From: Minutocellus sp. GHC0000111
Taxonomy: Eukaryota
Assembly: GCA_977018835.1 (NCBI GenBank)
Contig: OZ361260.1
Coordinates: 3,782,001-3,846,000, forward strand
Length of the DNA: 64,000 bases
Direction of reading: 5' to 3'
Both the position numbers and the translations under genes were made by a program. The notes under the pieces were generated by a model, which was not told the DNA's origin, did not search any database, and saw nothing but the letters and a program-made list of their open reading frames with translations. Positions within the stretch are counted from its first letter, which is position 1. Every line of letters begins with the position of its first letter. Positions 1 through 56,931 of the stretch are shown here, piece after piece.

Positions 1-342
1 TTTGTGTCGGTTCTGGCGCAAGACACGCTTTTCGATGAGAGCCTTACAAAAAGAACCCCAAATGAGGGAGACGTGCAAAAATACCCCAAACAAATATCCC
101 CTTATGTCCGCATCAAGATGCGGACAAGCTCATCAACAGTGTAGTAAGTACATCTGACGTCGTCTGGGAATGAGAGCAAGAGTGAGAGGATTGCCTCCTT
201 GGCGTTAGCACGTGATGTTTCCATGGTTGTTTTTTTGTTTTGTGTCGGTTCTGGCGCAAGACACGCTTTTCGATGAGAGCCTTACAAAAAGAACCCCAAA
301 TGAGGGAGACGTGCAAAAATACCCCAAACAAATATCCCCTTA
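1..342. repeat. Internal tandem duplication (period 238 bp) inside the element copy
   Basis: Bases 1-104 are repeated at 239-342. Confidence 0.9.
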
Positions 343-702
343 CCTCCCAACAGCAAAACTTCAAGATATCTTCCCACCAGCACCACCAATGCTGGTTGTG
401 CGTCGGCCGAGACTAATTTCGGTCGATCCGACGATGGAGCGCTCGATGATGTGCACGTCGACCACTGTGTTTCTGAGGGAGAGTTTATTCATCGAAGTTC
501 CTCTGAACCAAGTGTTCCTGGAGGGATTTCCGACTTAATGCTGAAAGGAACGTCGATGACTCTTCGCCACTGTGGAGAGCGGCGGCCTTCGATGAGGAGC
601 CCATTGTCACGTTGGAGTGCTAACTTTGGCGACGGTGCGAAGAAAAAACGGCACAAAACACGCTTTTTGGGGGGCTTCCTAAAAGTTATGGACAGCGCCC
701 TC
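1..702 (-). mobile_element. Terminal part of a second copy of the Kolobok-type element at 46188-50407 (runs off window start)
   Basis: About 109-702 aligns by eye with ~49844-50407, with a few substitutions and indels. It ends in the same TIR, TTATGGACAGCGCCCTC (686-702), followed by TAAA. Confidence 0.9.
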
Positions 703-704
703 TA

Positions 705-1853
705 AACCGCCCTCTTCAGAAAATGATCGACAGCCTGAAGATCAAATGTGAGCATAACGATTCAAAGGAGGGCGATGGCGACCAGCACCGGCCTCCCTCG
801 TCACGCCGCCGGACAACTGAAAGCGGCGAAGCCGTGGACGGCGAGGCGAAGGAGCCCGAGGCATGTGCGTGGGAGGGCCCTGTTTCGGAGTACCGCCAGC
901 ATGTCAAATCCTGTCCGTTCCGAGTAGTCCAATGCCCATTGAAATGTCGCGCTAGGTTTCAGCATCGATTCCTACAACACCATAAAGAGAACGAATGTCC
1001 TCGTCGCACTGTCACGTGCGAACAATGCGGCAAAAACAACATTCGGTTGGGGGGGATGGACCACCACAAGAACCATCAGTGCCCCGAGGCTGATGAGCAG
1101 TGCGAATACTGTGAACTTCAGATGAAGCGCAAGGAACTTGGCACTCTGCCGTATCTTGCTCAGGATGCGCTCACGACCAAGTGCCAAAAGTCTTTCTCTG
1201 GACACTACAAAGTATGCCCAAAAGTCCCAGTTCAATGCGAGTTTTATGGCGTTGGTTGTAGACATGAAGGAGCGCGGGAAGATATGCGTGATCACCACGC
1301 CGACAATGCTCGGTTCCATGCGAAGCTGGTAAGCGATGCCATCAATTGGCAGTCTACAACGGCGCATTGGGATGTATCCCCGAGGCTCATCGCGGGCATA
1401 GAAAATCGTGTCATTGACAGTCCACCAATCCCTGTCTTCGGTCTGCCTTACCAGTTCTTTGCTCGTCTCCATTTGGATGGAGAAAAGGTTGAGATTGAGC
1501 TACGCCTCCAAGAGGCACAGCAGCCGAATGGCGTCGAACGTCCAACCGTTTTGTTGCGAGATATCTCAATTTCCATCGACGCAGGCTATACCCTATGCTT
1601 TGCAAAAGGTCTACAGGATGGTGAGATCAAAGCAGTAGGCCCTGACACAGACAGCGTCGGAATATCTGCATTCTTTTGCAAAAGAAGGGAAAACGAAGTG
1701 AATTCATCACATGATGGCGAGGAAATTCAAAGAGTAAGAACAACCGTTGTCGAAGTCACAAGAGCAATGATCCAAGAAGAATCCGACGATGCCCAATTCA
1801 CTATCACCTTTGATGTGAAGAAGAATGTTGAGCATTTTTTAGCATCTCGGTAA
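705..1853 (+). CDS. TRAF-type zinc-finger protein, probably 5'-disrupted by the transposon
   Basis: Repeated TRAF Zn-finger motifs (CAWEG...HVKSCPFRVVQCPLKC...HKENECPRRTVTCEQC...HKNHQCP; CPKVPVQCEFYGVGC). The frame is open from 705 (NRPLQKMIDSLKIKC), which resembles the linker that normally follows an N-terminal RING. Confidence 0.75.
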   Translation, partial: NRPLQKMIDSLKIKCEHNDSKEGDGDQHRPPSSRRRTTESGEAVDGEAKEPEACAWEGPVSEYRQHVKSCPFRVVQCPLKCRARFQHRFLQHHKENECPRRTVTCEQCGKNNIRLGGMDHHKNHQCPEADEQCEYCELQMKRKELGTLPYLAQDALTTKCQKSFSGHYKVCPKVPVQCEFYGVGCRHEGAREDMRDHHADNARFHAKLVSDAINWQSTTAHWDVSPRLIAGIENRVIDSPPIPVFGLPYQFFARLHLDGEKVEIELRLQEAQQPNGVERPTVLLRDISISIDAGYTLCFAKGLQDGEIKAVGPDTDSVGISAFFCKRRENEVNSSHDGEEIQRVRTTVVEVTRAMIQEESDDAQFTITFDVKKNVEHFLASR

Positions 1854-44500: not shown

Positions 44501-46019
44501 TTACTGGAACAGCCCCTTCTTGATGACCCGCCCAATGTTGCCGTGAAGCTTCTCGGTGGCGAGCTCTACAACGGCCTGGCTGGCCTTGCCAAGCTCACCT
44601 TCGTCATCCGCAGCCGAAGCGGCTGTAGCCGAAGCGGACGCAGCCGCGGCGGTACCCTGCCCACCACCAACTAAAGCAGGCGGGTTGCCACCCTCCGCGG
44701 ACGAAGCGCCGGCACCAGAAGGCGAGGCAGCACCACCGGCCGATCCGGCAGCAGCGGGAGGGGCAGCCATACCTCTGGCAGCCTGAGCACCGAGTCCACG
44801 GGTGCTGCGTCCACGTCCACCGCCAAGGCCAAGGCTCTGACCAAAGGCGTCGGCGAATGGATCGGCCATGCCACCCCACCCGCTGGCTCCCATACCACCA
44901 CCGGCCCCGCCGCCGGCCCCACCATGCTTGACGAGGTCCAAATCCCGAACCTTGTCGGCAGCCGAAGCGACCCGATCGGGGAAGCGATCGCGGTTCTCCG
45001 TCTCGAGCATGGGGGCCGAACCCAGCGTCCGCATCCACAGAAAGTTGTTGGTCAGGATGCCCATGACGTTCCGGGCGCTGCCGCTCATGTAGGTCTCGAC
45101 GTCGAGCTCGTAGTACCGGCTCCGGCACGATCCCCACCGCTCGAGGCGGGCCTGCTCGTCGGCGATGACGGTGCCGTCGGGACATTCGTTGGGGACGGGA
45201 GAGTTGTACTCCGGCGGGTAGGCACGGAAGGCCTTCATTTCGGGCACGTTCTTGGCCAGCGAGCGGAGTGGATCGATGACGACGGCCAGGAAGGGGTTGC
45301 CGTGCGGATCCTCGGCACGCTGCCATTGGAGCTGGGTGGTCAGATCGGTCTGGGAAAGGAAGCAGTGCGAGTTGATGCCGACGTCGAAGGGGTGGGAGTG
45401 ATACCATCCCATGAACTTCTCCTTCCGGGTGCGCTGATGATGCATGAAATGAATTGGATGACAAGAGGTGAAAGGGTGGATAGATGATATATCATCATGT
45501 GGTGAGACCTTGAGAAGATGCAAAGATATATTGTATCCATCCAAATGCTTTGCCCTGCATGAAGTCTCATCACTTGGCATAACTCGACACACAGGCAGAA
45601 CAAACTCACCTCCAGAGATTCTCCGAGCTCAATCATGTAATTGACCACGTCCTGATCGTCGGCAATGACCCGCGTCTCAAATCCCTCAATGGGCAGAGGA
45701 AAGACGTCGGTCACCACCAAGGTCTTGGGCGTGTCGGGATCGGGACGGCCCAGCATCAGCCCCATGACCTCGATGGGATTGCCCCCCTTCTTCAGTCCCT
45801 TCTCGACGCCGGAATGGCAGTGCATCAGCATCTTCATCACCGCCGAGGGACTGAAGGCGGCCGATTGGAAGTACTTGGGGTCGTTCTGCCACGGGGCCGA
45901 CGAGCGGAGGGAGGAGAGGCGGGCTTCGTCGAAGGTGTACCTAGGTAGCGCGCGTCGGACTTGTCGAGGGGAGCGGCGGTGGTTGCAGTAGAGGTGGTGG
46001 ATACTGGTTCGACCTCCAT
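44501..46019 (-). CDS. CSN5: COP9 signalosome subunit 5 (JAMM/MPN+), with an 8-bp frameshifting insertion near the N-terminus
   Basis: PW..DPKYF, MKMLMHC.SG, EVMGLMLG, FPLPIEGFETRV, GWYHSHPF, FLSQTD, AVVIDPLRS and AFRAYP. Intron at 45434-45609. Confidence 0.9.
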
Positions 46020-46311
46020 GTTTCGTAGAGTTTATTTTAGATGGCTGGGAGAGAGATGGGGGCTTTTCGTGGCCTTGCAGCTTGGCGCGTTGCCTTGCTC
46101 GGTGCTACCTCGGCGGAGCGGCGGCGGATTTGTGACCACCGCCATGGTTGTCTCGCTTCGGCTGAGTGCTTCTGAGCCAGCTTTTAAGAGGGCGCTGTCC
46201 ATAATTTTCCCCGTTTTTAATCCCCCTTATTCTTATTTCTTATGACGAGCGAAGCATGACAAAAACTCGACCCCACCATGAGAATCGCCGCTCTGCCCCC
46301 TCTTCATTACG

Positions 46312-47541
46312 ATGAAGCGCAGCGCTGATAATAGTGCCGGCCCGGCCCACAACGCAGATACGCGGTTGCGGAAACTCAAGACAGATAACTCCGGTCGCCC
46401 GATTTTGCCTGTTGACAAGAAGAAAGAGAAGGCGGAGGACAAAGCGAAAGACGCCGTTACCGAGATACTGGAGGGCCTCGCCGTCACGTTGGAGAACGAC
46501 CCGAACGGACAAGGACGAGAATTATGGAACAATCCCGGCGTCGGCCATGCACTTCAACATCTTGTCAAAGCAGTCGAGGCTCGCGCTGATAAGTATCATG
46601 TTCGGGATGATATTGATGTCGCTGCTGAGCGGCCCGGCCTCGTAGTTACCAACCTGTCCGTGGCTGATGTGAAGTTGAGGCTGACGGTCGGCATCGTCGA
46701 TCAATTGCAAGATCCCATGTTTGACGCCGGACCTGAATTCTTCCCTATATTTCAACTTCATGGGAAACGGATCGATATTGGATCGGCTCTTGCTGCGCAC
46801 GGCCGACCTTTCAACACCACATCGCTTACTTTGCTTGATGGAAGCGGAAAGCTTATCGTCGCTCGTGTTGCCCTGACAACTACCGAAAAGGCCCGAAGTC
46901 TACAACAGGGCCATGTGATCAAATTGACAAAGTTCCACCGATGGCATGTGGCTCCATATGATGACATACACTCTACTGCTGGGATTGGACTAGTTGATTT
47001 TGATATTGTTGGAATGGGCCAACTTCTGCAGGTAGATGGTGGGCCATCAGCAGCGATCAGATCGGACACGGATGCTCTTGTTGCGGCCGTTTGTGAGGAA
47101 GCCGACGATGATCCGACGGCAGCGCCGGAGGCAGACACATTCGGTAATTGGGACGAGACCAGAGAGAGGCCGCCAATACCCCCTGCTTGCTGCACTGCCG
47201 CCAACCGAAGCTGCTCAATGTACGGCACACTCTTCTTTCAGAAATGCGTCTGCGAAGAAATGCTGGTGCCGACGGAGGAGGACCTGGAGGATATCGCTGA
47301 CAAATACTACGCAACCACCATGCCAGTCGAAGCCATGGCAAATAATTTGAAGAGGAACATGCTGTATTGGTACTATGCAACTGAGGTGTATCATGTGAGA
47401 GGTTGGCTTGATCGGAAGCCCTTGCCAACCTGTCTAGTCTTTTGCATTAGGTTCATTTATCCAAATGATAAAGGTGAACGATATGTTGGATTCATCCCTG
47501 GTCATCAAGATGAAGAGGAAGAAGAAGAGGAAAATGCATAA
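46312..47541 (+). CDS. Transposon accessory protein: putative OB fold plus KolX/P2X7-intracellular-like C-terminal domain
   Basis: The C-terminus NNLKRNMLYWYYA...RKPLPTCLVFCIRFIYPNDKGERYVGF matches the KolX/P2X7 tail pattern (R..Y...R..LP.C....IR..FP...G.Y.GF). A Cys cluster lies upstream. Confidence 0.7.
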   Translation: MKRSADNSAGPAHNADTRLRKLKTDNSGRPILPVDKKKEKAEDKAKDAVTEILEGLAVTLENDPNGQGRELWNNPGVGHALQHLVKAVEARADKYHVRDDIDVAAERPGLVVTNLSVADVKLRLTVGIVDQLQDPMFDAGPEFFPIFQLHGKRIDIGSALAAHGRPFNTTSLTLLDGSGKLIVARVALTTTEKARSLQQGHVIKLTKFHRWHVAPYDDIHSTAGIGLVDFDIVGMGQLLQVDGGPSAAIRSDTDALVAAVCEEADDDPTAAPEADTFGNWDETRERPPIPPACCTAANRSCSMYGTLFFQKCVCEEMLVPTEEDLEDIADKYYATTMPVEAMANNLKRNMLYWYYATEVYHVRGWLDRKPLPTCLVFCIRFIYPNDKGERYVGFIPGHQDEEEEEEENA

Positions 47542-47645
47542 TCATTACCTCAACACATGTAGATAACAAGAATGTGCGTAGCACGTGAGTAACAGCACAC
47601 AATAAATCCATTTTTTTTTACAGTGATAAAATATTTTACACGTGT

Positions 47646-50079
47646 TTACAAGCTGCCATTTTCTCTCAGTATCGCCGGCATCCAAGAGCTAACATCATTT
47701 GCCGATACACCGAAGTTTGTCTTAGCTTTCTTATTATTTCTTGCAGATTTCTTGTTGCTGCCTGGGCTTCTGCGCTTCTTTCCGGCGTAAACGACAACGT
47801 CGTCAGCATCGTCGCATTGACATTCAGCCCGAGTGTGGCCAAGCTGCTTGCATTTCTGACACTGCTGGTCAATCTTCTTCTTGCGGCCAGGCTTTGCTGG
47901 TTTCGCCTTACCAGCAGCTAGGGCCCTGTTCTTCTTGTACACATAGTCCTTGTCGTCTTTCTCGCTTCTGTTTCGCAAGGCTGCTCGAAGGCGCTTGCTG
48001 TCGCTCTTGCTCTTTTTGTACTCATCGGTGCGCTTACGCGCAAGGTCGCCCTCGAGCTTCCGGTCAATTGCATCGAATCCATCTTTTCGGGTAGGAGAAT
48101 CCCTCGATCCCAACTTTTCAAGAACTCGCTCATTGAATTCCGTACCCAGTGACTTGTGGCCAGCGGCTCTACTTGTTGCATTTGGGTAGGCGTCTGAAGC
48201 AGTCAAATTCGGCCTTTTCCCCATCGTGAACTTCGTCACCATCCCGTTGAGCTGTTCGACGCCGGTGGTAGATTCCTTCTTGCAGTTGGAGTCGGCAGTA
48301 TTCTTGTTGATTCTCTTGGTTATTTCAAGCGTCATCTTGCGAATCGTGTCGTCACTAATCTCCAACATGTCGCCATCGAATTGATTCCCCGAGCTCCATT
48401 CCTCATCGAGCTTGCCATCACTCCAATCAGGATGAGCAATGCTGAGGCGAATCCAATCACACGTGTTGGTGGTGCAAAAAGTGTGAATGCCACATTGGTG
48501 ACGAACGACGGACTGGAGTTCTTTCTGAAGGAGGGCCAGATGACTTTGTTTTTCCTCCTCGGACACAGCACCATCGGGCTGATCGAGAACGCTGTGCTTG
48601 TACCGATCAGTAATCTTCGAAATGTCCTGTTTCATCCGATTGATGCGTGGTCGGGGGATGGCATTAAAATTTTCAACTCCCAACATTCTCGGCCAGATGC
48701 TCCTCTGCCACACCGGGGGAGCAGGAAGAGTTGCGATAGCAGAAGCCATCATGGTCGTACAGGGCCAGCATCTCATCCTTGCTCATGTTTTTGAGCTCAC
48801 TCGGCGTCATTGGATTGCCGGCTTCCCGCCTCTCCCTCAATCTTGCATTGCAGGCTCTCACGCAATAGTGGCAGCTTGCCTGAGAGATTCCCTTGTCAAC
48901 AACAAGGCCAGTTTCCTTGTCTACGGCAAATACCGCTGCAGCAGAGCCAGTGTAGCAATGGCCGTAGTCGCGTTTGAGGGCGCTGCCGTCTTGGGCCACC
49001 GTAACCACCGCCGCCGTGTGCATCTCGCCGCCTTGTTCAAACTCAACAGTCTTGCTGCTAGCGGCACATGCTTTTGCCCTATTCTCGTCAATGATTTCAT
49101 CAGCTGCTTCAATAGCCGCTGCTCTGCATTTCTTTTCCACCTGTCGGGCATTCTTTTCGGTCGGATGGACGATGTCGGCCTTCGTGCAGAAATTCATGAA
49201 GCGACTTGCGCACATGGCCTCATCTTCCGCTGCCTCCATCAGCTCCAAGTTCATTCCAGCCTGACTTCTAGAATGCTTTCTGCCGGGGCACACAACTTCT
49301 GACCTCTGGCCGATCCAAGTGCAAAAAGAAAAAGGTTGGTTGCATCTATCGCATCGCCATTCAAATGTAACGCCGAATCCACGCCGAACTGGCTCGGCCG
49401 AGAGATGCAGATTGCCGCACGATCGGTGGAGATTCTGTGCGAAATCATGCAGCTGCTTCATCTCAACCACAATTCTTTTGCCGTTGAGCTGCACGCCGGT
49501 GATGTTGGGACGATCGGCAGCGTTGGCGGTGGGAGTAGATGACCGACCGCCCGAAGAGTTCTTGTCGGAATAACATTTCAGCATCGCGTTGAGATGGGGC
49601 CCATGCTTTTCATCGTCCTGGAAGCAATTTTCAGGCATGGTCGGCAGTGATCGCTTGCCATTGCGTTGAGAGCGTGGGCTGGCGTTATCGGCTATTCTGG
49701 AGAAGCGGTAGAAGGGCTTTGCAACGTCAAGGCCTGATATTTTCTCTGGACGTCGTCGTTGGATGTTGACCTCGTGTCGTGTTGGGACGTGTTGAAGAGA
49801 TGATCGAACAAGAGAGATCTCTAAGCTCGGCGACACGCCACCGCGCATCAAGATACGAACAAGCTCATCAATAGTGTAGTAAGTACATCTGACGTCGTCT
49901 GGGAATGAGAGCAAGAGTGAGAGGATTGCCTCCTTGGCGTTAGCACGTGACGTTTTGTGTCGGCTCTGGCGCAAGACACGCTTTTCGATGAGAACCTTAC
50001 AAAAAGAACCCCAAATGAGGGAGACGTGCAAAAATACCCCAAACAAATATCCCCTTGCCTCCCAACAGCAAAACTTCAA
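47646..50079 (-). pseudogene. Kolobok/'Mutator-like' DDE transposase, split by an apparent internal deletion at ~48675
   Basis: QDGSALKRDYGH...TGLVVD...SCHYC...CYRNSSCSPGVAE (first catalytic D region), then in another frame HQCGIHTFC...TTGVEQLNG (catalytic E) and a CCHC knuckle CQKCKQLGHTRAEC. Confidence 0.75.
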
Positions 50080-50411
50080 GATATCTTCCCACCAGCACCA
50101 CCAATGCTGGTCATGCGTCGGCCGAGACTAATTTCGGTCGATCCGACGATGATGATGTGCACGTCGACTATTGTGTTTCTGAGGGAGAGTTGATTCATCG
50201 AAGTTCCTCTGAACCAAGTGTTCCTGGAGGGATTTCCGACTTAATGCTGAAAGGAACGTCGATGACTCTTCGCCACTGTGGAGAGCGGCGGCCTTCGATG
50301 AGGAGCCCATTGTCACGTTGGAGTGCTAACTTTGGCGACGGTGCGAAGAAAAAACGGCACAAAACACGCATTTTGGGGGCTTCCTAAAAGTTATGGACAG
50401 CGCCCTCTTAA

Positions 50412-52595
50412 CTCTTTGTTCCCGAAAGTTGCTCCCGGAAAGCGACGTCATTTTTTTTCAACGAAGAACAATGGCGGCACGCACTATTCGCTGTCTCCGT
50501 ACTCAGCGATCGCATCACGAATAACTTTCATATTGTAGTATCATTTGCCTCTCTACTTGGTCCACATATATATCTGGTTCGATAATACGCGACGCGCTTC
50601 CTCGTCGCGTATCTTGACACATCATCGCAGCACCGCATTTTCGTCAAACGACGACGAATTCCACCCAATTGCCTCCTCTCTCGGCCTTTGCGCAAAACGT
50701 CCGAATAGGGCCCAGCACCCTATTATTTCCAGCCCAGTCCCATCAATAACATCGCCCTCCATCATCTGAGAGGCTTGGTGAGTTCGCCGATCGAGTCGGT
50801 ATCTTTGTTCTCCTGCCGCCTGACGAACAATTCTCATTTATGCCCATTGTTCCTTCGTATTGCACTGTTCCACCCATTACAGCCCACCATGTCGGCAGAG
50901 GATATGGATATCGATACCGACGATGGCTCTGATGAAGATATGGTTGGTGTGGAGGGTGCTGGTCCTGACGACGATCTCCTCCACGATATTGAGAGTGGCA
51001 ACTTGCGGCCCCTCCAACAGCCACAAAACGTTGCCGCCGCATCAGATCTTGTGGCAGCTACTACCACCTCTACCACCGCCGTTCAACGCCGAAGGCAAAA
51101 CGAATCCATCGCCCATGATGATATTGTCGCCGGAAATATCATCATGGTCAGTCTTGGGTCAGTCTTGACTGCGAGACTACCGGTGTGGAAGGCATCCTGC
51201 TCCAACTATCGGCCGAATTCATCGACATGGCCACCAAGGAGACCATCGTTACGTTCAATTCCTTCGTCCGCCCTCCCGACGACGCCGAATGGAACATGAG
51301 GGCATGTCGGGAGTCCCATAACTATAGCAAGAATGATGAGCGTATCAGGAATGCCAGTGGTATTGAGGCAGTATGGACGGCATTTCATGACAAGTGCAAG
51401 GTTATTCTCGCCGCCAAGAAGGGCTTGCTTGTCGCTTGGCACGGAACGTCAGATTGCCAGCACATCTTCAAGATCGTCGAGGACACCCACAAGGGCAAGT
51501 TGTTCTTCCCGGGGGAGATTGAATATTTCTGTGATCCTTGTGCTGTTGTTGAGCACTACAAGTCGTGCCAGTTGCATGAGGTCCGCCGGGCTTCGGGCGT
51601 GGTGGGCTATGGTCTGGGGACGGTGTACGAGGAGGCGTTCGGCGAAAAAATTGTTGGAGCCCATGACTCTCTTGTCGATGCGAAAGCACAGACTAAGATA
51701 GTTTTGGACTCAAGGGTATTCAAATTTATTGATAGAAAGGCTTCTATCATGTCCCTGAAAGATGTTTGGTCGGCAAAGCGGAAGAAGCAGCAAGAGCATC
51801 GCATTCCTCCCATGCCGATGCAAGAGCTGCTTCTTCTGCAAGAACAATCTGACCGGCCCCGATGGCCCACCTCCGTCGCCCCGAAAACATCGCCGTCTAC
51901 CGCAACCTCCACCTGGTCCTCCCCCCGCCCACCGCCATGCAACAAAATATAGAGTCACTTTATTTGAGAATCCAAAGAGCTGTGGATTGTGCATGCAAGA
52001 GCAGAGGAAGCCACCGGTAGACAAGAGAGTTGAGGGTGAGAAATACATCAATAGAACTCGAGTTGGCTGTCCCCATCCTAATTGCCGGGCCCATCCAATT
52101 TGCAATGACCACTGGCCTAATTACAATCATGCAAAGTAAAATAAATATCATGCATGGTTGTTCTCACCTTTTATTCGGCGTCGTGGGCACAAAATGTAAA
52201 ATCCCGGTCGGACGACAATTCGCCAAATCGAGCAAAGCCAACCACCACCCCTCATCACAAATACCACAGCCGACCTTATGAGGGGTATGGGGCATGCTGG
52301 TATCGCAGCTGGAACAATGCGCTTGTATTCGAAGCAATAAGTGGTCGTGAAATCGGCCGCATCGAGGCACTCTGACGAATGAGAAGCGCTCGCGATGTTG
52401 AGAAAAGATACCGGTAGATACGGTGTACATAATGAAAGTAGAGATGACGGCCATTAATATGATGTGTTATGGGTGCAAGAAAGCGGCGGGAAGGTTGCCG
52501 TCGCTACCCGTGAAGTTCCACCATGGTGGCGTGCATATGTGGTTTTGCGAGTGGCCGTTTTTTTTGTGCATTTTGGTGCGCCGGGGAACAAAGAG
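50412..52595 (+). mobile_element. piggyBac-like non-autonomous element (2184 bp) carrying a DEDDh exonuclease
   Basis: 12-bp TIRs CTCTTTGTTCCC (50412-50423) and GGGAACAAAGAG (52584-52595), TTAA at 50408-50411 and 52596-52599, and a Cys-rich tail resembling the piggyBac CRD. Confidence 0.75.
50889..52139 (+). pseudogene. DEDDh 3'-5' exonuclease domain joined to a piggyBac-type Cys-rich C-terminus (disrupted)
   Basis: Removing the 11-bp tandem duplication GGTCAGTCTTG (51146-51167) gives VSLDCETTG...FNSFVRP...LVAWHGTSD...AHDSLVDAKA. After a frame switch at ~51795 it reads PCRCKSCFFC...CGLC...RTRVGCPHPNCRAHPICNDHW. Confidence 0.75.
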
Positions 52596-52639
52596 TTAAA
52601 AGTACAAAACCTGAGACTGCAACGGCGGGTTGCGCCACA

Positions 52640-55600
52640 GCACAAGAAGGAACCTCGTTGGATCATGCGTGTGGAGACTCCGGATGCAAATTCTTGGACC
52701 TGGCGACGGATGTGCTTGAGGAAGGCGTCACTGGACCACCGCCCTACCAGCATGATTGTGTACGTGGGAACATCATTTAGACACATTGCCATTGCTGCTC
52801 CGCTGCGAATGGAGTGTGATCCGAATTCAGAGGGGGATGGCAGCCAGCCCAGGACGTCCTCTCTCCAATCACTGTGGCCGACGCTCTCGGATCTTGTCAA
52901 CTATTCGGGTGGCAGGAATGTATTTTAATGCGCCGTTGACCACGAAGGCATTTACCGGCGTGTCGCTGTTGGCACTAGGGTGCCCTAGGACTCGTTTCAC
53001 CAGGGCAGCCCAAGCTCGAACTGGCTGGGCAGAGGGTGGCGTCGTGGGTGCAGTGTTGCGCAATCGTGACGTCACGCTCGTCGTTCTTCTGGAACTCAAA
53101 GGTGACGGAGACAGAGTCTGCTGAGAGGAGGGACCGGTCGTTGTGACACATGCGCCGTCGGCCGCGGCAGAACTGGATGTTGCGGAGGCGGAGCAGCTTG
53201 GTCCTGCGCTCACCGCTGACTCTCTGGAGTGTTCGCAAGACCTCATCGCGAAGAAGGCGCCGACGACGGCTAGTTGCCCGACTGCACGGTCCTCTTCCGT
53301 TTCCCTGACGGAGGCGATCTCTCGGAGGAGCCGGCAGGTGATCGCCTTCTCCGGCCGCTCGGCCGGGTCGGACTGGCTGTGTCCTCGGAACTGCCGCTGC
53401 AGAAGGAATGAAGGCTGGCCGATGTCGTCTTTCCCTGGGTCCCTGCGCTGCTGGTTGGTGCCGGAAGGACGAGCGTGCATGTGAGACGGTGTCTCGGACT
53501 GTCGACGCAGCCAGTCGCGAAAACTTTGGCCCCGAAAAGCTGGCCTGTCGGACGGCGTGGGCAAAGGCGCCGAGAATGACTGTTCGGTCTCGGGGTGATG
53601 CCTTGTCGAGGAAGACGTCGTCCCCGGTCCCGATGAGCTGCAGGAGCTCAGTCCAGCGGCTCCACGCGAGAGCGTGTTTCTCGGCAGTGGCCGTTGCAAC
53701 TGCTTCCTGACGGGCAGCGTCCGCGCCTGCGAGACAATCCAGGAAGCAATCTCGTTGGGCAGTGGCGCAATCCTGAAATTTGAGGGAAGCTGACATTCGG
53801 GAGATGACAGAAGCAATTTCGTGAGGTCAGCATCAGAGAGAGATCGGCATCACGAGAAAGAGAGTCGGCCTCCGGATTGCGCTTCCCCTGGAGCCACTGT
53901 GAGTGCAGCATGGTGTTGGTCTCGATGAGCATGTCGGCTAGTTTCCGCGCCGTGGCCAGCTTGACCGCTGCGTCGGCATCCTTCTCTCGCCGTGAGACAC
54001 GAAGTTCGACTTCCTGAGCCATCCCTCGGCCGTGGTGCTGTCGGTCCCCGACAGTGCGCAGGAGAGGGTTGGCAGGTTGCCCTCGATGTGGTCGATCCAT
54101 GGGCCGATGACGGCGGCGAGGAATTCCAGGCAATTGAGGGTGAACCGGCCCCACAGCTCCTCGGGGAGGGCAAATCTCCACGCTCTGCCGGATGAGGACC
54201 ATCCGCCGATGCCGTGCTCGCAGGCGTCACTTGTGTGCTCGTGGGTGGGGCAACGGCACGTGAGGAGGTTCATGCTCATGCCATCGGCGGCCCTTCGGAG
54301 GAAGCGGAGCCACAGGTTGAGGTCTTCTGCATCCTCAGAGTCGAACCGTTGGCGGCCGTGGCGGCGGGCCTTCCAGAGCCGATCCCGAAGGCGGCTGAGG
54401 AAGTGTCGTGCGGCTGGAGTGATGTGTCCGACGTGGTTTAGCCTTCCGACCAAGGTGTCCAGCTCTGATCTGGTGGCGCCGCGGGCTCTGAGGAGCCGAA
54501 GCATGTCATCGCGCCAGGCCAGGTGCTTGCTCCAAGGGAGCCTCAGCGGGAGCCGCCGGGTGTCAGCATCCCACCCCAAGAGACACAGTGCTTCGGAAGG
54601 CGTCCCCTCGGCGAGCAGCTTCTTGATGGAGGCAAGGTCATCTCTGGGCAGTGGCTCGCTATCGGATGCCGGTCGGCCAAGCGCGTGGATGGCGAGGAGG
54701 GTGGCAGCGGACATCCGATCCTTGTTGTCGCCCAGGTCAGGGGCTGCGGCGATGAGGTCATCGACGTGCGGCTCGACGATGCCATCCTTGTTGTCGGGAA
54801 GGGTTGCGATCATGTCCAGGGCCGGCGCGAACGGCACATCGTCGCCCTCCACCTTGGGGCGACCCACGTGCTTCTGCTGGGGGCTGTGGAGCTCTGACGG
54901 GTCCCAGTCCGAGCATTGCAGGAGAGGGCCCTGGCCAGGTCGGCCGCCGATTCGGACACATTGCACCACTCGCTCGGGCAAGGGCGGCCGCCGAAAGTCA
55001 GCCGGAGGGACATGAGGGCAATGCCATCCAGGGTGGTGATCGTTTTGACGGCCGTGCTGGGAGCCAAGTGGGCCCGGCGACACGCAGCCTTGAAGTCGAC
55101 CTTCTGCAGGAGGATGGGAGTGCGGGGATGCTTGTGACGGGCGTCTGCGATGCAGTGGATCACTCGCCGGAGGGCATGGCCGAACACCACTGGCTGGTGG
55201 TCCTCCATGCGTGCTCTGTTGTTGACGGACCGTGCGGTGCCGATCTCGAAGGATTGGTCGTGAGTCAGGCGGTCCTTGGGCGTGATCTCGCCAGCCTCGC
55301 TGATCGTGTTCTGTGCTACCAAACCCATCGGAGCCACCTCCGCTCCAGGAATGAGGGGCGCGACCTTTGCTGGCAGAGGGAGGGCGAAGCCGCGGGTCAC
55401 GTCGTCGAGAACTTGGTCCTTGAGTGCCTCCGGCCTGTCCCTGGCCGATTTGTGGTTGCCTCGGCCGATGTTCTTTGTCACGCTGTCCAGTCTGCTTTCG
55501 TCGCTCACCGGATCGAGGGCCCAGTCGGATCCACTGTCGAGAATGGAGCGGAAGCGGGGCCACAGCGGGTGCCGGCCAAGAATCGGCTCCAGAAGACTCA

Positions 55601-55830
55601 GGTCTCTGAACTCCGATCCCGGTTGGAGTGGCGACCCGCCCTGCGCCTCGAGTGCCCTGCTCAGAGAACGATCGTGTTTCTTGAGGACCGACCAATTGTG
55701 AGCGGCGGCCTCCGTCAAGAGCTCAAATCTGAACTCCGTGGGCTTCGGTGTGGCCGACGGGGACTCGACTGCTCGTCGGACGTGCTGTGCCAAGGTGGAA
55801 ACATCGAAGATGGGCTCTAGTTCCCACGTG
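52640..55830 (-). mobile_element. Degenerate tyrosine-recombinase retrotransposon (DIRS/Ngaro-like): RT, RNase H and YR; 5'-truncated, several frameshifts
   Basis: RT: RLTHDQSF, KVDFKAACRR, RLTFGGRPCP, HVDD, LLGW. RNase H: SDAC..GIGG, NCLEFLA, TDSTTA, NPEADSLSR. YR: FFAMRSCE, FQKND, LCP, HSIRSGAA, GRWSSDAFLKHIR. Confidence 0.9.
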
Positions 55831-56931
55831 GAATTGCACAAGGCGAGAAAGGTGAGACATGCACATGCTGCACGTTCACGAGCATGCGGGTCTGTCCGAC
55901 CGTGGTGGGCCCATTGTGGGCGCTGGGCTGCCCCGTTTGTTGTAGGTGTTTCTTCACCTGTTGGTCTCACTTGCCAATCCAACTTTTACAAACAGCGTCG
56001 CGATTGAGCAAAAAAGTAAACAGTGCACCCAAACAAACACATCACGTCCTTCTTAACTCACCCATTTATCTCCCAGACCAAAAAGTCCCTTTGTCGGGTT
56101 GATTGTTGCATAAACTTATCCCAATGCTGTCTGTCTCTCCTCGGGCGCAAAACTGTTGTCGGAATTCCGGGAGGTCGAGTGGGGATGCGATCGGTCGGGA
56201 TCAGCGAGAGTCGGTCATGCGGGGGGTGCGGCGCAATCCCGGCAGTTTATCATCAACAACAACGTGGGAAAGTGCCAGAGGGTCTGGGGCATCACAACGG
56301 GAGCACGACGAGCACAAAGACGGAGCAATGGTGCCACCCCAGAGAAACGAACGGCCGACAGATGGAGGAAAAGCAGGCCGATGGTTCGTGGCGTTGATGC
56401 GCAGCGGAGGCCAATCTGAGGATGCAGTGAGCTTCAACTACATCCAAACATGATAATGAATGCGTATTTGGTACGAAAATATAGTTGTACGCCGGCGCAA
56501 CGCCGACGGACCACCATGGTGTTGGACGGTCAAAGAATGGGTGACGAACGAGATTGGGTTTTGGTGGGTTTCTTCGTGACGTGTTCGTCTTCTGCCGAAA
56601 AACGCTTCATCCGACCGGCGAAACAAGACGAGATGGGGCTGTGTGCCCTTGCTTGCCTTCGCTTCCGCAGGCCGCGGAGATGTACTGCAAAGGCATAGAG
56701 GCGCCTTGATGTCTGTGGCCCCTGCCTGACTAGGGGTACTTTCTTGGTCATGAAGGAGGTTGTGGCTTCATTCTCAGCAGCAGGCAGATTTTGCAGATTC
56801 AGATTCGCGTGGCAGGCCGCATGAAAATAATGAGATGCGACCAAGACATGCATGGTGGAGAATGAGCAAATCTTGCCTCGAAGCAAAGTTCAAAGTTCAA
56901 CTCTCTCCTCTGCTGCCTGCTACGCTCTACG

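Follow-up and report, generated by a model that had tools for sequence, protein, structure and literature searches.

Kolobok elements use TTAA targets and have termini of the form 5′-RR...YY-3′, a rule that distinguishes them from piggyBac elements (PMC9587614, in the portion of the paper available). According to the same portion, several lineages of the superfamily encode their own exonuclease or RecQ helicase (PMC9587614). Elements of the Kol0 lineage (Kolobok-1_XT type) follow the same rule for target and ends and carry a second gene, KolX, which is related to the ballast domain of P2X7, has seven conserved cysteines for two zinc ions, and has been reported from animals (PMC9587614). KolX-like proteins of 110–180 residues are also found in the piggyBac elements piggyBac-2_GrCh and piggyBac-14_PI, for which that portion reports no OB fold and for which the present comparison was made by eye only (PMC9587614). 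Among diatoms, Kolobok-1_FraCyl of Fragilariopsis cylindrus has a transposase with a CCHC finger, and its _2p name suggests a second protein (PMC9587614). The P2X7 ballast domain, also termed ZCD and represented together with Nanor by PDB 6u9v and 9e3m, has been found, as far as the available part of the survey goes, in animals only and mostly without other domains (PMC7016195).

Two further systems are relevant to the protein described below. The N-terminal OB domain of RPA70 (RPA70N; Rfa1N in yeast; PF04057) has very weak affinity for single-stranded DNA (ssDNA) and mainly binds proteins, of which it docks more than 20 through a groove lined by R31, R41, R43, and R91; these four arginines give the domain its ability to bind acidic peptides (PMC10479964, as excerpted). 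Plant Helitrons likewise carry an RPA-derived gene within a transposon. Those elements transpose by rolling circle and encode an RPA homologue that binds ssDNA, whereas the diatom element encodes a DDE transposase and has the N-terminal OB type only, fused to a ballast part (PMC4683698, in the part consulted).

The window analyzed here is a stretch of 64,000 nucleotides from the diatom Minutocellus sp. GHC0000111 (contig OZ361260.1). It contains an element of 4,220 bp with the layout TTAA|GA...TC|TTAA. The left TTAA target-site copy lies at 46184–46187 and is followed by a 21-nt terminal inverted repeat that starts with GA (46188–46208, plus strand); the right repeat, which finishes with TC, lies at 50387–50407 on the minus strand, and the right TTAA at 50408–50411. 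With the TTAA included, the inverted repeats (46184–46208 and 50387–50411) are 25 nt long and 96% complementary by sequence comparison. In copies recovered from sequencing runs, the flanks of other insertions start at 46184 and 50411. The right end of the element recurs as a second, partial copy at 109–706 (plus strand, 92.6% identical). TTAA target-site duplications also flank two related loci from metagenomes, L008 and L013, and the termini are GG...CC in these and GA...TC in the window element. These ends, together with the transposase match described below, substantiate the earlier assignment of the element to Kolobok as a TTAA-targeting transposon.

The surroundings of the element hold several other features. 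Its left end is about 165 bp upstream of a gene for COP9 signalosome subunit 5 (44501–46019, minus strand; JAB and CSN5_C matches). On the other side, its right TTAA is also the left TTAA of an adjoining TTAA-flanked element (50408–52599; 2,184 bp with C...G ends), whose open reading frames (ORFs), judged by eye, resemble part of an exonuclease and a Cys-rich tail of the piggyBac type and have no Pfam match. Farther on, at 52869–55328, a strongly TA-depleted region seems by eye to hold pieces of a tyrosine-recombinase retrotransposon, with no Pfam match at E 0.01.

The transposase gene lies on the minus strand in two pieces. The 5′ piece (48681–49956) encodes the first catalytic Asp and a CCHC finger and matches PF20700 at E 6e-14, while the 3′ piece (47646–48680) encodes the last catalytic Glu and a zinc knuckle. 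The catalytic triad and the CxDxxH form of the C/DxxH motif are seen in the full-length relatives P0062–64 and P0216, which together with PF20700 identify the DDD/E transposase expected of a Kolobok element. Compared with three full-length relatives of 853–864 residues, the window transposase is without about 67 residues at 48680, a deletion that takes out the second catalytic Asp and the C/DxxH motif. A 19–20-nt piece with an ATG is also absent behind 49951, and is present in three RNA runs and in the partial copy at 109–706. No full-length transposase of the window's exact family was found among the three longer matches. A programmed frameshift or intron at 48680 was ruled out because the relatives hold the extra residues there and because loose contig ends in run X8 flank this position on either side and, by eye, continue both frames. 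In the more distant transposases (L002, L008, L013, L017, L018), an intron appears to interrupt the gene at a single conserved position that follows an HxQ motif, with the donor and acceptor sites visible in L008, L017, and L018; the window's close relatives are without such an intron.

The element belongs to a young, high-copy family. One cluster at 90% identity holds 71 near-identical accessory proteins, and further clusters of truncated ones have 21, 9, and 6 members. Dozens of sister copies share about 99% identity with the window copy, and 15 of 16 stored 409-residue sister proteins differ from the window protein at 1–5 positions. Read depth in run X5, which is not a measure of copy number, is about 12,000–15,000 in contigs inside the element and 120–190 at the flanks. 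Domestication of the window copy was rejected, as it sits between its inverted repeats and is 99% identical to many others. RNA runs contain the element (nine matches), but in contigs that also span its ends and other flanks and therefore do not demonstrate transcription of the family; a single RNA contig covering 46253–47596 gives a weak hint of transcription of the window's family.

The differences between copies have a pattern of their own. Among the differences listed, 5 fall in the left part (46184–48680) and 34 in the right part (48680–50407), so that the shift from sparse to dense lies near the deletion point at 48680; 20 of the 39 listed read differences in the element are of the TA class. 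In the sister copy P0020, each of the 27 amino-acid changes is consistent with A>G or T>C, and 25 lie in TA context, versus 3 of 30 changes in TA context in 15 other sister copies. The observed/expected ratio of TA is 0.11 at 52800–55900 compared to about 0.6 elsewhere. Across P0020, 52800–55900, and the element from 48680 to 50400, this is the pattern of TpA-to-TpG/CpA hypermutation of repeats, for which CpG decay was dropped as the source. A similar process has been reported in Bigelowiella natans (bioRxiv 10.64898/2026.01.13.699255, as far as the available part goes).

The accessory gene (46312–47541, plus strand; P0001) is an intact, stop-free ORF of 409 codons. Its stop lies 105 bp from the end of the transposase at 47646, so the two genes converge inside the inverted repeats, as the earlier note had stated. 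The same note pointed out that this ORF is intact beside a broken transposase. Both observations hold, yet they are no evidence of selection in a young copy that is about 99% identical to its sisters: the copy is recent, two small losses of sequence have broken its transposase, and this break is uninformative on selection on the accessory gene. The ORF is not a chance frame, because a full scan over 50%-identity representatives gives 204 homologues at E ≤ 0.001. Among these, the named ones all belong to diatoms, namely Minutocellus polymorphus (63% identical), Extubocellulus spinifer, and Seminavis robusta. MMETSP transcriptomes contribute two homologues, and relatives of the gene are therefore transcribed. 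As a single query, the window protein has no match in Pfam, the PDB (phmmer), or the ESM Atlas; the viral contigs and prokaryote genomes searched contain no relatives, and BFVD gives generic OB matches only. With a central homologue as the query, the ESM Atlas returns only leads below 0.9 (HROB, SPIDR-type, TPP1, and Rep-A_N OB clusters). No homology was found between the accessory protein and the transposase.

The AlphaFold2 model of the 409-residue chain has a mean pLDDT of 83 and a pTM of 0.73. From the N-terminus, the protein consists of a family-conserved helical part without a known match (residues 36–90; 46417–46581), a predicted RPA70N-type OB fold (residues ~119–251; 46666–47064), an acidic and variable linker (residues ~252–289; 47065–47178), and a KolX/P2X7-ballast-like domain (47179–47499), all on the plus strand. 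On the evidence of profiles and models, it is almost certain that the protein combines these two predicted folds, an RPA70N-type OB domain and a KolX/ballast domain. One homologue of 708 residues, P0130, has Rho_N/SAP-like repeats ahead of its OB and ballast parts, a hint that some family members may add DNA-binding modules.

The OB domain is predicted to be of the RPA70N type, which is more specific than a generic OB barrel. A family profile of 109 sequences matches residues 5–107 of human RPA70N at E 5e-5 to 1e-4; with a larger profile of 123 sequences one RPA70N chain is retained at E 4e-4, so this match is modest and moves with the alignment. Pfam Rep-A_N matches only 3 of the 123 family members at E ≤ 0.05. 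In the predicted structure, the domain forms a five-stranded barrel with an N-terminal helix like that of RPA70 1–120, and the central segment in which the earlier note saw a resemblance to RPA70N (residues 171–234) corresponds to strands 2–5. Foldseek returns nine matches under E 0.001, every one RPA70N or Rfa1N. VIA gives yeast Rfa1N at Z 13.0 (rmsd 2.8, 120 residues aligned) and human RPA70N at Z 12.3 (rmsd 2.7, 112 aligned), followed three units below by TPP1 (Z 9.3) and then MCM10 and RADX, while ssDNA-binding domains of RPA and SSB score 7.5–8.8. The whole domain aligns, including the N-terminal helix, and the RPA70N family is the best match by all three approaches. The resemblance proposed in the earlier note is thus borne out. 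In contrast to RPA70, identity is only 12–16% and no further RPA70 domains follow the OB fold; the 409-residue model contains one barrel and no additional ssDNA-binding OB domains.

The ballast part, when residues 278–401 are folded alone, is predicted with a pLDDT of 90. Among 48,161 chains compared with it by VIA, only rat P2X7 476–595 reaches Z ≥ 5 (Z 5.2, rmsd 3.6, 96 residues aligned, 23% identity), and the next match has Z 2.8. This Z is middling; Foldseek also puts P2X7 on top, but at E 1.2. Family profiles match P2X7 at E 3e-5, and PF20478 matches 44 of the 123 members at E ≤ 0.05 (best 1.3e-5). The checks by AlphaFold and Foldseek that the earlier note proposed therefore lead to RPA70N/Rfa1N for one domain and P2X7 for the other, and both likenesses, whose absence that note would have taken as evidence against its reading, appear in profile and structure searches.

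The cysteines of the ballast part set it apart from full KolX. Residues Cys294, Cys301, Cys312, and Cys374 are near-invariant, being conserved in 98–100% of 112 sequences de-replicated at 70%, and two more cysteines are conserved in 48% and 81%. Three of the four align with C499, C506, and C572 of P2X7. The upstream CxCxxC cluster is found in none of the 112 members, and the family thus has neither the seven conserved cysteines of KolX nor its PxWCxCxxC cluster. Arg348 and Arg380 correspond to R546 and R578 of the P2X7 GDP site and are basic in 97% and 94% of the family, and H547, R574, and K583 of that site are not retained; invertebrate ZCDs have the same partial pattern (PMC7016195, from the excerpt available, which is also the source of the P2X7 residue lists). 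The diatom domain shares with P2X7, in addition to the fold of residues 476–595, equivalents of Y550 and of the cysteines and arginines above, and a terminal PxC-x5-R-x3-P-x6-Y-x-G pattern. From its sequence, the domain appears to be a cysteine-reduced form with a probable single zinc site. The earlier identification as KolX therefore stands for the P2X7-ballast likeness, but not for a full seven-cysteine KolX. Unlike the KolX of Kol0, moreover, the diatom protein has a helical part and an OB fold fused ahead of its ballast part.

The element, the accessory gene, and its linkage to the transposase recur across a lineage. A metagenome scan using the ballast motif alone gave 26 loci, some of which are near-duplicates (L016/L017, L005/L007, L002/L013, L023/L025). 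The OB region is present in 22 of the 22 loci with at least 300 nt upstream, in frame with the ballast part in 16 and broken in 6. An opposite-strand, convergent transposase is found in 20 of the 23 loci with at least 500 nt downstream (four of these matches are weak, E 5e-6 to 2e-4), and shuffled ORFs used as a control for the linkage scan gave no match. L008 and L013 are complete TTAA|GG...CC|TTAA elements of 4.7–4.8 kb. A derivative with long inverted repeats (L009:425–3217) combines an intact accessory gene with a transposase reduced to a 5′ stub. Across the lineage the accessory gene has 21–35% identity with constant position and orientation. Distances between accessory proteins correlate with those between transposases over 14 loci (Spearman 0.64, reached in 1 of 5000 permutations), with part of the signal owed to near-identical pairs. 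The comparison of dN/dS among relatives that the earlier note suggested gives 0.09–0.48 between related families in the 14 measurable pairs of 17, with 13 below 0.3; the window's gene, which has no partner close enough, is outside these pairs. The accessory gene is thus under purifying selection among relatives, as seen between families only.

The CCHC finger after the first catalytic Asp, present in the window transposase and its relatives, occurs in KolobokP, E, D, Kolobok5, and solitary families but not in Kol0 (PMC9587614, in the part available). The window transposase therefore differs from those of Kol0, and the KolX-like gene sits on a non-Kol0 branch. By eye, none of the transposases in the paper's alignment, as given in its text, has the signature of this lineage; that of Kolobok-1_FraCyl differs in its first-Asp signature, and this element, compared by its transposase row, may still overlap with the present family (PMC9587614). 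The RepHel context of Helitrons is not found either, as the accessory gene's neighbor is a DDE transposase inside terminal inverted repeats. In the open full-text literature, no account joins Kolobok with a replication protein, no transposon OB-fold/RPA70 gene is described in diatoms, and ballast and transposon occur together only in the 2022 Kolobok paper and a review. No published description of the OB–ballast fusion was found in that literature.

What the protein may do is best considered from the groove of its OB fold. Groove positions were mapped from the family-profile alignment to RPA70N, and percentages are over de-replicated members. The positions of R31, R41, R43, and R91 are basic in just 17%, 32%, 33%, and 34% of the family, and that of R31 is acidic in 51%; the basic groove of RPA70N is thus not conserved, and the window protein retains the R31 equivalent alone. 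Other positions are commonly basic (M57 in 66%, P40 in 52%, Q78 in 64%) or aromatic (L87 in 60%; Val in the window protein). For these reasons the groove, as judged from the alignment, is remodelled and would be no faithful copy of RPA's docking site. The net charge of the OB domain is near neutral (median +1 over 64 sequences; −1 in the window protein).

We tentatively favor, at a little short of even confidence, that the accessory protein is a non-enzymatic adaptor of this diatom Kolobok lineage whose OB groove binds a partner peptide. This reading is preferred because OB domains that bind proteins are the closest structural matches and because other Kolobok lineages carry exonucleases or RecQ, so that recruiting such activities would fit the pattern of the superfamily. 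The fuller scheme, a possible one that we hold somewhat more loosely, is that the OB domain derives from a host RPA70-like gene whose 5′ part was captured; that the ballast part would hold one zinc and contact nucleotide or DNA phosphate through Arg348 and Arg380; that the groove would take a peptide from a host end-processing or recombination factor, or from the transposase; and that the protein would deliver this partner to the element ends or to the donor-site break. Against the adaptor, the conserved basic M57 and aromatic L87 positions would suit nucleic-acid binding equally well.

The close rival, which we consider somewhat unlikely, is that the OB domain may bind ssDNA directly and shield element ends, overhangs, or resected donor ends. 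The recurrent basic and aromatic groove positions are consistent with this, as are the matches to MCM10, RADX, RPA, and SSB folds at Z 7.5–9.2 and the plant Helitron RPA-like genes, which are thought to act in this way (PMC4683698, as excerpted). It is weakened by the presence of only a single OB domain, of the type with very weak ssDNA affinity in RPA, by a net charge near zero that is negative in the window protein, and by the Val at this protein's aromatic position.

Two other explanations are improbable, and equally so. The protein could act as a decoy, sequestering checkpoint or silencing factors for which RPA70N is the host docking site, and so dampen the response to transposition breaks instead of aiding the reaction. 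The RPA70N-type fold seen by Foldseek and VIA would suit this role, and a separate convergent gene could, from its arrangement, work in trans on the host; a decoy would be expected to preserve the surface that host factors bind, but conservation of the groove arginines is poor. Alternatively, the OB fold could be a mere scaffold for a working ballast domain, with its groove free of ligand. In the family alignment the ballast part is far more conserved than the OB part, and conservation within the OB part peaks at residues of the core or of turns (P145, D176, G177, G200); the whole-chain pTM suggests that the domains may be packed together, and OB-less ballast-like genes exist in Kol0 and piggyBac elements (PMC9587614, in the portion available). 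Weighing against the scaffold are an OB region in every testable locus and the recurrent basic and aromatic groove residues. That the gene is a captured passenger without a role in the element's life cycle would agree with the many Kolobok lineages that encode a transposase alone (PMC9587614, same portion), but this is largely refuted, and very improbable, given constant position and orientation at 21–35% identity together with purifying selection.

The adaptor reading can be extended to a bolder and unlikely proposal. An undescribed diatom Kolobok lineage would have taken over from host RPA70 the domain on which proteins dock, joining it to a primitive one-zinc ballast; the protein would dock resection and recombination factors of the host (DNA2, MRE11, or RecQ types) at the donor break and steer repair toward restoration of the element, with a net gain of copies.

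To our knowledge, KolX, the transposon protein ancestral to the P2X7 ballast domain, has no known function. If true, the proposal would be the first to assign a function to a KolX-like protein and would place the roots of the ballast fold outside animals. The fold now extends to diatoms, where an earlier survey, in its available part, had animals only (PMC7016195). The fusion with an RPA70N-type domain ties a KolX-like domain to DNA repair, and it provides surfaces open to experimental tests in a small, soluble protein whose family is young and abundant in copies. The OB–ballast gene is a sixth kind of accessory gene in the Kolobok superfamily.
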